From positions 1 to 50,470 of the forward strand of contig JABANN010000227.1 of the NCBI GenBank assembly GCA_013115125.1: a DNA stretch of 50,470 nucleotides, given 5' to 3'. The notes beneath the pieces were generated by a model. That model was not told the DNA's origin, ran no database searches, and was given only the letters and a program-made list of their open reading frames with translations. The stretch comes from Perkinsus olseni (lineage: Eukaryota). Every line of letters begins with the position of its first letter. Positions within the stretch are counted from its first letter, which is position 1. Position numbers and translations under genes: made by a program. Below are positions 21,290 to 40,426 of this stretch, piece by piece.

Positions 21290-23081
21290 CTGACCGAAAC
21301 TAGCGGAAAAATTCATCGTTATTTTCCTGCCTTGCGAGGTTCATTAAAAAATTACAAAGCAGAAAATATTTTTCCGACGAAGAATCTTTTATTCTGCCAT
21401 CCGCCAGGTACTACATCAGGATTCTCTGCCACCTTTTTGACGCTATGCAGGACGTCCAGAGCCGAACTGACCCTCTCCTGGTCGGCGGTGCTCCACTGGG
21501 CCGTTTTTTTCACGCGTAAGTTGAGCACGAGTTGAAGAGCTAAAAGCGCGCGCGATGTGACGGAGCCTGGCATTGTGTCAGCTAGGGACAGGATCTGAGT
21601 ATCCAGAGGTTGAGCGAGGAAGATACGAAAGAGGTTGAAGCGTACGTATAGTAGAGCGTCGAGGCCGGCTCCCGAACCATCGAACGTATCCAAGACCCCT
21701 GAGGTCTCTTGCGACATCAATAGTACATCAAGATACCTGCCACTTGAGAATCTTTTTTTCTGTGAAGTGCCAGAGTGACCTACGCTGTTGTTGCCTTGCC
21801 ACCAGGATCAGTTGCCTTGGACGCAGACCGCAGAAACGACGCTAAATGCGCAGCATGTGAGACCTGCAAAAACGCCGTCACCGGGGATCGAACCTGCGAC
21901 CTTCCCACCTCCGTCAGAGTCGCCGTTCTTTGATTGATGAATGGTATTAGCTTCGGCACAGTATTAGCTCTTCTGAGTATCGCGTCCCGCGCCTTCGAAT
22001 GCACCAGAGATGTCCGGCCGGATTTATCTATCGCGTGCGAAAGATACGCCTTTCCGACCTATTCTGTATCTTACCAGCTACGAGCTGCCGAAGATACTCA
22101 AACTCAGCGTCTTTAGACCGACCCCGAGAAGGCAGACCAGTCAGGGAGGATGACATAAAAGGTACCAAGCAAGAGTGCTTTCGAGAATAATTGCTGGAAA
22201 CGCGTCGTGTGGGTACCAGGCGAAGATCCGCATAAAAATTACGGTCAAAATGATAGCAGAGAACCTTTTGGTAGTATCTTCCGTGCCATGCAATCTACGA
22301 CGACCGCCCAAGTGCTCACGTCAAAAATATCTTCTAAATCTGTTGTGCGAGAAATGCAAAATTAAACGTCTCAAAGACGTAAGAAAATCTCGTTTGCATG
22401 ACACGAACAAGATCCCAATATCTTGCCAGATTTTTTTCAGGAAAATTGCAACCGGAAGTTCATAAAATCAGTTAATTTTTCCAAACACAAGGGGGTTGAC
22501 GGGTGGTGTAGAACTGTCAAGAAGCAGTACAAAACTCGGTTTTTCTCGGACTTTTTCCGTGACAGAAAAAACACAATTTCACTGGAGATGCCCTCACCAA
22601 CATTCTCCACTACTTTGTCGAAGGCCCGACCAATTGAGAATTTCTTCTCGTACCAAAAATCAATTCTCGAAAGCTCGCAAAAGATACTCAACGGCGAAAA
22701 TGAAAAACATTGAAAAAAAGAAAAAAATTCACATCGCGATTCTTGCTTGGTAAGAAACGGCCTCTCACCAATTACGGGAGGAACTCCTCAACGTGATACA
22801 GGGAAGGCGGGAAAATAAAAAATACGTCAATTCATTATCGAAGTTGATACCATAAAAAACGCAACTTCCAGCGACGAAATCGTCCATGCAGAGATACGCG
22901 ACCGAAAAATTGGACGACCATTATTACCGTAAATTTGGAATTTACGTAAATTTGTGAGACCATTCAAACAATTTTCGAACTTGTCAAAATTTGGCGATGA
23001 GACGTCGAAAAAATTCGGGAAAATCTTGAAAATTTTTATATTTTTGAAAACACGCGCACTGACGTGGGCACTGCATACCAC
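21290..23081 (-). CDS. Hypothetical multi-exon protein (may be continuous with the adjacent minus-strand gene)
   Basis: Exon-like segments HSKARDAILRRANTVPKLIPFINQRTATLTE|VSHAAHLASFLRSA (GT-AG intron 21864-21908) and ILSLADTMPGSVTSRALLALQLVLNLRVKK. No family recognised. Confidence 0.4.
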
Positions 23082-23796
23082 TCGGCCGACCTCCGTACTA
23101 CCGTTCCTTCCCGGATAAGTATCTTAGGTTGACCCATGCTGTAGATAAGTAGTAGAAGAACATAATAATAACGGTTTTGTTATTACTCACTATGTTAACT
23201 CGAAACAGAATACAAAATCAGAAACGACTCTTTCCCAGAGAATCATGGTGAATCATCTCCCAGAGGCGGAAAACCTTGATAATTGAGGTTGAAGCGCGAT
23301 GACCTGTCGCGGTGCAATAACATAGCGCGTCGGGAAAAGTGAAAGAGGAACTAAGGAATATGAAAGAAAGACAAACGAATGGAAATTTTTTCATTTTTTA
23401 TATATTTACTTTTTAATTTACTTGAATGTTTAATTTTCTTTACCCAGATTTTTTACTTTTTTCAGTAATTTTTTCCAGATAGTGTTGGGTCGGAAAATCA
23501 TCATACTGATCAACCTGCCTGAGAAGAGCTCGCTTCGACCTAAGATTCTCCTGAGAAAGGAAAAAGTAAATGAGCCTCACTTGAAGGCCAGTTTTTTGGA
23601 CAAATTTCGCGGAAAATCTGAAGGGGAGGATTTGACCCTGAAAACCTTTGATAATCTGCCCAGTGAAAGCGTCTGCAATTTTCAAGCGTTTTTTCTCTTG
23701 CACGCAGACACCACTTCTTGCCATCTTGGCAATTCTTGCGTTTCCTCTACGCTCATCACCCGCCCGACGTCAAAGCAGCTTCCCTTGGGTATATCC

Positions 23797-37503: not shown

Positions 37504-37626
37504 TTAGAATGGTGTACTTGTGAGAAGTTGTGGTGTTGGAGTGGTAGGGGGATGGTGGGGTATCTTAGGTTGAAGCGTGCACTTTGTAAGGTTGAAAGAT
37601 ACGCTTCAGTTAACAAACTTGTTGCC

Positions 37627-40426
37627 ATGTCCCATCAAGCGAGTCCGGGAGCGGGAGGGGGAGGATCATGTGGAAGTGCAACGCCGCCAACGACAGACCT
37701 TGACTCGACTTCCGCGGGAAATCATAGGTGGCAGGGATCGAACCGGGGACCTTTCGGATGAGAGACGGATCTTTTAGGAAACGGCTTCGGCACCACCAGC
37801 TCACCCCGGCGGCTGTGGCGGGCCAAGCGGAAGCTCTTGCGAAGGAGTTTGTTCATGCGTTGCCGGTAAGATTTTTTTCTGATTTTTCCGGAAATTTTCG
37901 GACTTTTCCCGCCCTCTTTTCTTCTTCTTTTGCCGAGTCTTTTCTCGAATTTCCCCGGATTTTTCCGAATTTTTTGGATTTCTGGAAATTTTGCGGTAGA
38001 ATTTCGCGGCGCGCGGTCAGGTTGGTACGGTAGTGATTTGTCGTATGGTCGAGCTCGATCAATGGCGGCATGGGACGGTGGTGAGCATAAGAAGAAGGGA
38101 GAATCTCCCGGAGGAGCAGCCCTTGCAGCAGGTGGGGAGGTCCCGGGTTCGATCCCTGGTGAGGGTATTTTTTTCCAGGCCGGTGACCATGATTATTATG
38201 TGCATTTTCAACGGATGAATCGACGACACGACCGGTGGATAAAATGGGAGGATCTGAAATTATGCGACAGCTCGGAGAACAGCAGCGAATCTAATGGAGT
38301 TAGCGTGCCAGGTGGGAAATCTTGCTCATCTTAGACAATCTTGCTATTCCTCTAAATCTGTGAGGGCGGTGATTGTCGATCGAGTATCTTAGGTTGACGC
38401 GTGTTTTTCACGCACCGTTGGTTGGGTAATTACGCCACTTCTTTCAACAAAAGACTTTTTTACCCATTTTTCGCCGAGAATTTCGTTTTTTTCCTCCTTT
38501 TTTTCTGGCTTTTTTGAAAAATTATTGTTCTTTGCAGAGTATTGGTGGTTGTGATTGCGACATACAGAATACAAGTTGATGGGTAGCGGAAAATATTTAA
38601 GGAATTCATTTTTTGCGGAAAAAATTTTTTCACGCCATAATTTTCACAACTTCGGCGAAGAAGGGTAGTTTTTTTGGTGAAATTTTCAATAAAATTTTCT
38701 GACATTTTCAGCATCTTTGTCGTTACCGGTGGATGATGAGTACAGCGATGACTCTGATCATGAAGGAATGGGGAATGAAGAGCTCGAAAGCTGGGAAAAG
38801 GCGACCAGAGTGAAGCGAATCCAAAAGATATTCTTCCACAAGTAAGCGTGCACTTCACGGAAAAGGTTGGTTTAGTTTTTTTTCAGGTATATTTTTGATG
38901 CGTGGTATTGGGCGCCGTTTCCGGAAGAGTATCAAGATTTGGATATTCTCTACTTTTGCGAATTCTGTCTGAAATTTTTCGAGTAGGTTTTTTGGGGGAT
39001 TTTTTCGGCGGAAATTTTCGGAAAATTTAGTATAAATTTAATTGAAGAAAAAGCATTTTCATCGGCAAGGCTGGAAGAAAGGAAAGAGGAATTTTTCAGC
39101 GCGGAGTTTGGATTTTTTAGCATTTGACATGAGCGGAGCTGCGCAGTTCTCGAGCGTTTGCGGTGACGGAAAGATAAATTTTTTGCGGTGATCAAAGATT
39201 TCTACGATTCTCAGCTCGATTGTAGCTGTGATGTAGGGAATGAGAGTTATTTTAAAATGGGCGAAAAATTCCGAATTGCACAATCGTTCGTTCTTTTTTC
39301 AGCACCCGCGACGGTTTGGTATGTCACATGAACCGATGCATCCACCGTCGGCCGCCGGGCGACGAAATCTACAAAGATCCGATCCAGAGAATTTCCATCT
39401 TTGAGGTTGACGGATATTTTCAGCGAGTTTATTGCGAAAATATTTGCTATTTGGCAAAACTTTTTCTGGACCATAAACGCTTTGATCGATTCACTGTTCA
39501 CGAATTCTTCTTCTATGTGCTGTGCGACTGGGGCGAGAATGGCGAGTATCATTTCCGAGGATATTTTTCGAAAGACAAAATCGTCACTCATCGAAATCTT
39601 TCCTGTATTCTGTCGCTTCCGTGCTTCCAGCGGCGCGGAATCGGCAGTTTTTTGATCGATTTTTCGTACGAACTTTCGAGAAGAAGTAAACAGATTGGCT
39701 CACCGGAAAGGCCTTTGTCGGATTTGGGAAAAAGAACATATTTACGTTATTGGTTGAGTAAAATTTTGGACGTGCTGAAGACCCTGAACGTGAAGGACCA
39801 GATCAGTATACAGATGCTGTCGGAGCTGACTTATATCAAAGAAGATGATGTTGTGATGTGAGTGGAAATGGGCGGTTTTCGAGCGCGGGCCATGAGTTTT
39901 TGAGAACGCTAGAGTCGTGATGGGAAATGGGCTCGCTAGAAACCATCGGTTCTTCAAGTCACTCGTTAGCCGTGTGAGTTTTACGACAAATGCCGGAAAG
40001 CTGCTCAGTCAGACCAGCACCGGTGTGGCTTGGTTCTAAAGGAAACAGTTGAGATAAATTTATCGAGTTTGGGAATGTTGTGGTCAGGGCGAAAGATACG
40101 CTGTTTTTGAGTCACTGGGTGGACACAATTTTCTGTCTCCTTTTTTGTGTTCACAAGTGGAGGAATTTCGTGGCGCAGTGACGTTTTCAGGACATTGACC
40201 GAGTATAATATTTTGGTATACTATAAAGGGAATCATCACATCGCCTTACCGCCATGGAAAATAAAGAAGCTGTACAAACCTCCTTCAGAGAATCATTTAA
40301 AGTAAGTGACGGGTGTGGGGTTCGAACCGAGGACCTTTCGATTACCCTCTATTGGTCAGGATACATCCGGAGTTCCTCCACTGGGTGCCTTTGAAGTTGC
40401 CGGCAGCCGAGATGATACCGTCGTGA
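37627..40426 (+). CDS. MYST-family histone acetyltransferase (Esa1/MOF-like) with Tudor-knot chromodomain
   Basis: [16 protein letters not shown] (Tudor-knot), [21 protein letters not shown] (zinc finger), [79 protein letters not shown]. Stop 40424-40426. Confidence 0.95.

Follow-up and report, generated by a model that had tools for sequence, protein, structure and literature searches.

How new spliceosomal introns come into being is a long-standing question, and the best documented route is the insertion of specialised transposons, known as introners. The question is posed in a particular form by a 50,470-nt stretch of the Perkinsus olseni genome (contig JABANN010000227.1, positions 1 to 50,470; hereafter the window), in which an initial annotation had pointed out two very short, nearly identical introns in two unrelated genes, each apparently composed of the 3' half of a tRNA gene. 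Has a fragment of a tRNA gene been turning into introns here? The answer favoured below, with moderate confidence, is that these introns belong to a family of introner-like sequences with a tRNA gene as its origin, and that this family is one among several repeat families present in the introns of the window. All counts are from this one 50-kb window.

Both introns lie where they had been annotated, with the lengths and GT..AG ends originally given, and both contain a core that consists of AGGTC, three nucleotides and GGTTCGATCCC, in sense orientation with respect to the host gene:

21864 to 21908, minus strand: 45-nt intron, core sense, donor GTGGGA 14 nt before GGTTCGA, a run of five T (T5) 11 nt past the core, then GCAG.

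38132 to 38178, plus strand: 47-nt intron of a MYST-family gene, core sense, donor GTGGGG 14 nt before GGTTCGA, T7 11 nt past the core, then CCAG; pairing of the T-stem is possible at five of five positions.

The reported identity is correct: aligned from the donor onwards, the two agree at 29 of their first 34 nt, and a global alignment of the two introns has 37 identical columns of 47. Splicing was examined in RNA contigs of four public RNA-type runs (X7, X8, X10 and X19, from four studies) over positions 20400-40399, a stretch with little or no cover at about 27.7-32 kb; such contigs attest the presence of a spliced form, not its proportion. Both introns are absent from the contigs of all four runs, with joints 21861->21907 (45 nt skipped) and 38128->38176 (47 nt skipped), at which an ambiguity of 2-4 nt resolves to GT..AG. 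When all listed joints are applied, long reading frames stay open in both genes without either intron, as had been predicted. The 45 nt of 21864-21908 are themselves in frame and free of stop codons, so that it is the RNA contigs that identify this segment as an intron.

The two host genes are indeed unrelated. The plus-strand gene encodes a MYST-family histone acetyltransferase (MOZ_SAS domain, E 8e-62), with intron 38132-38178 situated within its Tudor-knot region, and the minus-strand gene is proline-rich, with no Pfam match in the two pieces of its open reading frames that were scanned. The spliced MYST protein, the closest relatives of which are metagenome proteins with 56-61% identity, aligns without gaps at all seven junctions to 18 of 18 homologues; the tRNA-like introns inside the aligned part, 38132 and 40302 (the latter described below), both have gap-free junctions. 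In tblastn alignments with 20 metagenome loci of more distant MYST relatives (36-50% identity), some of which may be transcripts, the matches are unbroken at the intron positions covered, an observation with no bearing on recent history, and the motif is present in none of the 20 loci.

The pair is part of a larger set. Nine non-tRNA copies of the core were found in the window, with AGGTC preserved in seven of them and the full arrangement of AGGTC, three nucleotides and GGTTCGANYCC (denoted AGGTCNNNGGTTCGANYCC) exact in six. When up to one mismatch is allowed, GGTTCGATCCC has 8 matches compared with 1.11 expected; AGGTCNNNGGTTCGANYCC, with up to two mismatches, likewise has 8 compared with 0.29 expected, among them a real tRNA-Val gene and a further, degenerate copy at 42189. 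Neither count is attained in any of 100 shuffles. Introns 21864, 37728, 38132 and 40302 match one another and other copies in blastn-short searches (E 9e-5 to 2e-3). In a search with an nhmmer profile built from six copies, intron 21864-21908 (minus strand) scores E 2e-8, being itself part of the training set. The other seven copies are as follows, with profile E-values where available:

20772 to 20816, minus strand: 45-nt intron of the same gene as intron 21864, core sense with one mismatch, joint 20771->20817 in four of four runs, profile E 0.021.

37728 to 37777, plus strand: 50-nt intron of the MYST gene, in its N-terminal coding part, core antisense, joint 37724->37775 in four of four runs, profile E 3e-8 (a training copy).

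40302 to 40359, plus strand: 58-nt intron of the MYST gene, in its conserved C-terminal part, core GGTTCGAACCC antisense, joint 40301->40360 in four of four runs.

42159 to 42268, plus strand: predicted 110-nt intron of an RCC1-repeat gene, with a degenerate antisense core (two mismatches) at 42189-42207.

44256 to 44276, minus strand: core copy identified by motif match, antisense to the RCC1-repeat gene, in a predicted intron of about 400 nt.

19453 to 19490, plus strand: core copy, T5 exactly 11 nt past the core, then CCATCAG.

14651 to 14679, plus strand: weaker copy with an exact GGTTCGATCCC and no AGGTC, T4 exactly 11 nt past the core, profile E 5e-4.

All five core copies in the RNA-covered 20 kb lie within RNA-verified introns of 45-58 nt, three in sense and two in antisense orientation, and all five introns have GT..AG ends and are skipped in four of four runs. 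Among the joints listed (15 of 40), 13 are canonical (GT..AG, or CT..AC for the minus-strand gene); 8 of these delimit short introns (45-58 nt) and 5 long ones (155-400 nt), and the core occupies five of the eight short introns and none of the five long ones. The donors are placed in several ways: the GT of intron 20772-20816 is the GT of GGTTCGATCTC, the GTGG of intron 37728-37777 is the complement of the end of the acceptor strand, and intron 40302-40359 has a GTAAGT of its own, 6 nt upstream of the tRNA-like part. Both predicted introns of the RCC1-repeat gene are placed by the repeat profile: downstream of 42159-42268 the exon begins at profile position 4, continuing the repeat of the upstream exon, and the exons flanking the intron of about 400 nt end at position 22 and begin at position 24, respectively. 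The copy at 42189-42207 retains a hairpin resembling an anticodon arm. The copy at 19453-19490 is outside the RNA-covered stretch, about 380 nt past the stop codon of a 3-hydroxyacyl-CoA dehydrogenase gene. The nearest matches of that gene are Vitrella (57%) and entries from marine transcriptomes, including one with a dinoflagellate label, which suggests an affinity with myzozoan alveolates.

The resemblance to a tRNA gene extends beyond the core. The core itself is the variable-loop and T-arm/B-box consensus of tRNA genes, and in tRNA numbering the 11 nt past it correspond to the last three positions of the T-stem, seven of the acceptor strand and the discriminator. A TTTT begins exactly 11 nt past the core in four of nine copies, and within 1-2 nt of that point in two more, compared with a background of 0.014 per position; since 11 nt is the remainder of a tRNA, the T-run sits where an RNA polymerase III (Pol III) terminator follows a tRNA gene. 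The layout originally described for the pair (variable-loop-like AGGTC, T-arm/B-box, 11 nt, oligo-T, CAG) is thus upheld, with the T-run at the position of the end of a tRNA gene. Outside the family, the best match of the six-copy profile is the 3' half of a tRNA-Val gene, which scores E 0.003 over profile positions 4-39; a tRNA-like sequence nearby is also among the best non-training matches, by its T-arm and acceptor (E 0.02). The tRNA-Val gene is:

31807 to 31881, minus strand: tRNA-Val gene, anticodon CAC, 61 bits, the sole tRNA gene of the window recognised by ARAGORN and Rfam.

About 110 nt downstream of it, at 31603-31694 on the minus strand, the tRNA-like sequence has a perfect acceptor stem of 7-9 bp and a T-arm GGTTCGAATCC, with about 35 nt of unrecognisable sequence where the D and anticodon arms would be expected; it is not called by Rfam, and by ARAGORN only at 85% thresholds. 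No run of four T occurs within about 60 nt after either the tRNA-Val gene or this tRNA-like sequence.

A general T-loop pattern has nine matches in the window, of which the seven outside tRNAs are GGTTCGATCCC (six times) and GGTTCGAACCC (once), and the T-loops of the window's own tRNA and tRNA-like genes differ from those of the intron copies. Such uniformity among the copies, unlike the tRNA genes nearby, points to one or few sources, from which the copies are likely to stem. The T-run register, the consensus core and the profile match to tRNA-Val together support the derivation from tRNA that the initial annotation had suggested; in our reading of the sequence, the copies probably descend from the 3' part of a tRNA gene and are not tRNA genes themselves.

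How such a fragment could become an intron may be pictured as follows. The source would be the 3' part of a tRNA gene, running from the 3' strand of the anticodon stem through variable loop, T-arm (with B-box) and acceptor strand to the Pol III terminator. Copied as DNA, a piece of about 45-60 nt would land in coding sequence in either orientation, and would persist since the spliceosome would remove it at once. In a sense insert the donor would be a GGT within the tRNA-like part (GTGGGR, or the G/GT of GGTTCGA), and the oligo-T terminator with the following CAG would serve as polypyrimidine tract and acceptor; in an antisense insert the donor would be supplied by GTGG, which is complementary to the end of the acceptor strand, or by a GTAAGT next to it, with an AG at the far edge of the insert as the acceptor. 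Wherever splicing uses sites other than the exact ends of the insert, some nucleotides of the element would be left in the exon, as may have happened at 20772 and 37728. An unrelated 400-nt intron of the MYST gene, at 38312, also begins with GTGGG, which is therefore an accepted donor here.

The core and its tRNA-like flanks fill most of each short intron. Because these introns leave no room for an older intron, they provide the main argument that introns were created by insertion, presumably of an element that is or formerly was mobile. That this element would be a self-contained mobile introner is a further step, which we infer. The most specific version, in which a mobile element of about 45-60 nt derived from a Pol III gene and carrying a B-box and terminator would act as a complete spliceosomal intron in either orientation, is offered tentatively, as a possibility that is less than probable. 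The conserved B-box hints that Pol III machinery may participate in the spread, through TFIIIC or through a Pol III transcript copied into DNA.

A number of observations weigh against the reading of the copies as an introner-like family. What can be aligned across copies is a core of about 20-25 nt, and the flanks of most copies do not align, which argues against one recently active master copy; moreover, the conservation of the core is partly a matter of ascertainment, because the copies were found with it. Two subgroups can be distinguished, the original pair with GTGGGR before AGGTC and three copies with CGAA before AGGTC. The proposed family of similar introns has gained a wider set of intron-borne copies, but their similarity is confined to about 20-35 nt. 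The donor lies 14 nt from GGTTCGA in both members of the pair, but inside GGTTCGA in the third sense copy (20772), the offset being constant in just two of three sense copies. Likewise, the idea that a tRNA fragment makes up a complete intron describes the pair well but not copies 20772 and 37728, parts of which reside in exons: in the former, the variable-loop and T-stem-like part is in the upstream exon, to about 20830, and in the latter, the last 9 nt of the upstream exon are a continuation of the element. The proposed double use of the terminator as a polypyrimidine tract fits the sense pair, in which oligo-T is followed by CAG, but does not extend to the antisense copies; because the core is antisense in 37728-37777, 40302-40359 and the two predicted introns, oligo-T supplies no polypyrimidine tract there, and antisense copies draw their splice sites from other parts of the insert or from its edges.

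Other points against this reading are negative results. Inspection by eye revealed no target-site duplication (TSD) in the flanks, other than the AG that any splice site has, and no terminal inverted repeat (TIR) in the copies. No copy is called as a tRNA by ARAGORN or Rfam in the whole window. The two introns of the original pair, searched singly at E up to 10, have no Rfam tRNA match, the sole match being to a tmRNA 3' end in one intron (2.8 bits, E 8); relaxed ARAGORN settings give mostly noise, with two calls at the loosest setting that overlap copies 14655 and 37734. No 5' half or A-box region was found beside the copies by alignment of the copies, with no dedicated pattern search for an A-box. 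The T-stem is fully paired in the copy at 38146 only. As RNA, the five tRNA-like introns fold no better than shuffles (z -0.9 to +1.4), which places the conservation at the level of sequence, and none of eight short introns folded has a z-score below -1.7; these shuffle-like scores led us to drop the idea that the T-arm acts structurally in the intron RNA. Finally, the family consists of nine copies in a single 50-kb window.

Of the rival explanations, the one that survives best, though we consider it unlikely, is that the copies were captured independently: fragments of tRNA genes, or cDNA of pre-tRNA 3' halves with a U-run trailer, would have served as filler at chromosome breaks and would have been kept only where they were spliced out, with no self-propagating element involved. 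The variation of the acceptor-strand parts among copies resembles that among different tRNA genes, the tRNA-like part begins near the anticodon loop in most copies with the T-run in tRNA-gene register, both orientations are expected of filler DNA, and hallmarks of transposons were not found. The T-loops tell a different story, as six of the seven non-tRNA matches being GGTTCGATCCC, and the seventh GGTTCGAACCC, points to one or few sources, and independent captures would not be expected to produce the common GTGGGR donor, 14-nt offset and acceptor layout of the original pair.

Selection on the motif within old introns is an alternative that we hold to be distinctly unlikely. Here the B-box might act as a TFIIIC site or have some other sequence-specific role, and constraint or homogenisation would account for a core that is near-invariant amid diverged flanks. 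The conservation of the core is, however, affected by the ascertainment noted above, and the T-run register and the presence of AGGTC in seven of nine copies are more than a bare binding site would show and speak for descent from a tRNA gene. A role at the DNA level would fit the absence of an RNA-structure signal and the occurrence of the motif in both orientations, but introns of 45-50 nt are too short to hold an older intron plus an insert.

Intron transposition, in which a tRNA-like intron would have been reverse-spliced into another mRNA, copied to DNA and recombined into the genome, seems very improbable as a general account. It could explain the original pair, the members of which agree in donor and offset, have the same layout at the acceptor, are of similar length (45 and 47 nt) and share 37 of 47 alignment columns, but it cannot yield the antisense copies (37728, 40302, 42189 and 44258) or copy 20772 with its tRNA-like part extending into the exon, and it leaves the likeness to a tRNA gene with its terminator unexplained. 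Chance resemblance or an assembly artefact, for which the shortness of the motif is the one argument, may be set aside as having a negligible probability, given that none of 100 shuffles attains the observed counts, that the introns are skipped in contigs of four runs from four studies, and that the T-run keeps its register besides.

The tRNA-like copies share the introns of the window with other repeats. The RNA-verified intron 21737-21783 matches 41414-41435 over 22 of 22 nt (E 1e-7) and 4796-4816 over 20 of 21 nt. Because introns match repeats elsewhere in the window, repeat families are evidently common in its introns. A second family of about 45-50 nt has ends that are inverted complements (GTATCTT ... 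AAGATAC); its copies often have a GT donor before them and an AG within about 10-20 nt after them, and many resemble whole short introns:

34769-34819, 35019-35069, 35441-35491, 36886-36933, 37557-37607 and 38381-38426: copies of the second family.

9077-9130 and 9193-9246, reverse strand: copies of the second family.

5464, 14828, 15685, 16229, 26470 and 32006: positions of further copies of the second family.

The notion that the second family is a decayed form of the tRNA-like one is unsupported, as the tRNA-like profile does not detect it. Short T-rich repeats of the GGAAATTTTCGG type are abundant in long introns and intergenic DNA, one 28-nt family having 15 copies in the window:

37866-38020, 38312-38711, 38983-39302, 44060-44180 and many others: sites of T-rich repeats (families D1, D2 and D5).

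Related 21-mers (GAATTTCG.GGCGC...) are present at 33647-33667, 37092-37112, 37999-38019 and 40163-40183. Two long introns verified by RNA, 37866-38020 and 39858-40190, end with the 21-mers at 37999 and 40163, and those at 33647 and 37092 have an AG at their end or following it. The RNA contigs have many loose ends at the 21-mers, as expected for a repeat present in many transcripts. A TT..AG joint, 33668->40158 (21-nt side), was considered as a possible spliced leader and rejected, since it is explained by the 21-mer being repeated at intron 3' ends.

Another TT..AG joint, 21901->37036, which was likewise considered as a possible spliced leader, appears in runs X7 and X8, in which the contig covering the 5' region of the MYST gene starts with 21 nt equal to 21881-21901. 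These 21 nt, which have no other exact copy in the window, are the antisense tRNA-like core of the intron of the minus-strand gene, here joined to an AG acceptor at 37036. The joint could reflect an upstream exon ending in a copy beyond the window, or a chimeric contig.

Some further features of the window were noted. A near-perfect hairpin of about 61-71 nt at 7985-8055 has sub-threshold matches to plant and animal microRNA precursors (38 bits versus a gathering score of 102); a palindromic repeat, rather than a microRNA gene, is its probable identity. Over most of positions 10000-46000 the plus strand is rich in G and T, with sustained positive GC skew (0.13-0.34) and negative AT skew that dip around 18-24 kb. 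In the RNA-covered stretch the contigs at 23735-25068 are the deepest by a wide margin, with a word depth of about 1200 in X7, and overlie an open frame of 339 residues (23434-24453) that has no Pfam match.

If the introner-like family does have a tRNA gene as its origin, fragments of Pol III genes would be a new type of source for introns beside the transposon types listed so far, and a mobile element of this kind would be the smallest introner and the first derived from a tRNA. It would also define a minimal working intron, made of a GGT donor, a re-used oligo-T terminator and an AG, and would offer a compact system of 45-58 nt for minigene tests of intron creation by insertion. Fragments of tRNA genes may be under-counted in genomes, as tRNA finders do not report them.

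Known cases of introners include those of Micromonas and Aureococcus. A broad survey reports, in its main text, 1,093 introner families in 201 species, comprising DNA transposons with terminal inverted repeats, LTR and non-LTR retrotransposons, helitrons and cryptons, with very numerous introners in Amoebophrya and Polarella (PMC12130899); parasitic and free-living dinoflagellates are thus among the documented hosts (PMC12130899, PMC7789003). The routes by which introners recruit splice sites are described as varied (PMC9860276). Introners of Amoebophrya are reported to have inverted repeats of 8-20 nt and direct repeats of 3-5 nt, in genomes with many introns per gene, repeated intron sequences and over 60% non-canonical introns, their mechanism of mobilisation being given as unknown (PMC7789003). 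Neither 'SINE' nor 'tRNA' occurs in the main texts of PMC9860276 and PMC12130899, the supplementary tables of which might list such a family, and in PMC7789003 tRNA is mentioned in other contexts only, not with introners. Among the papers listed by full-text literature searches, none treats tRNA-derived introners by title or abstract; one is on permuted tRNA genes.

Like introners, the copies in the window are similar in sequence, canonically spliced, located at unrelated positions in unrelated genes and present in both orientations, and their splice sites are partly within the insert and partly recruited at its edge, as described in the main text of PMC9860276. Unlike the introners of the main-text surveys, those verified here are only 45-58 nt long, have no TSD or TIR that could be seen, and consist of the 3' part of a tRNA gene with B-box and terminator; surveyed introners, as there described, are usually similar from end to end, whereas the copies in the window are similar only in a short core. 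Amoebophrya probably belongs to a related branch of life, as the best named match of the dehydrogenase gene near the introns is the alveolate Vitrella (57%). The likeness to Amoebophrya lies further in the repeated intron sequences and the many introns in one gene; the difference lies in the splice sites, as 13 of 13 canonical-type joints listed here are GT..AG, and in the inverted and direct repeats, which were not seen.

Short interspersed elements (SINEs) derived from tRNA have a whole tRNA-like head with an A-box, followed by a body and a tail; their typical length is 100-400 nt. The copies in the window resemble them in their Pol III-type B-box, in their descent from a tRNA gene and in being dispersed in both orientations, often in introns, but they comprise the 3' part only, have no common body or tail, and make up a whole intron each. 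In a chlorarachniophyte, a spliceosomal intron is reported to have originated from mitochondrial DNA. There, as is proposed here, unrelated cellular DNA was inserted into a gene and is spliced as a new intron; unlike that single case, the window contains at least five RNA-verified cases in 20 kb, all with one common core.

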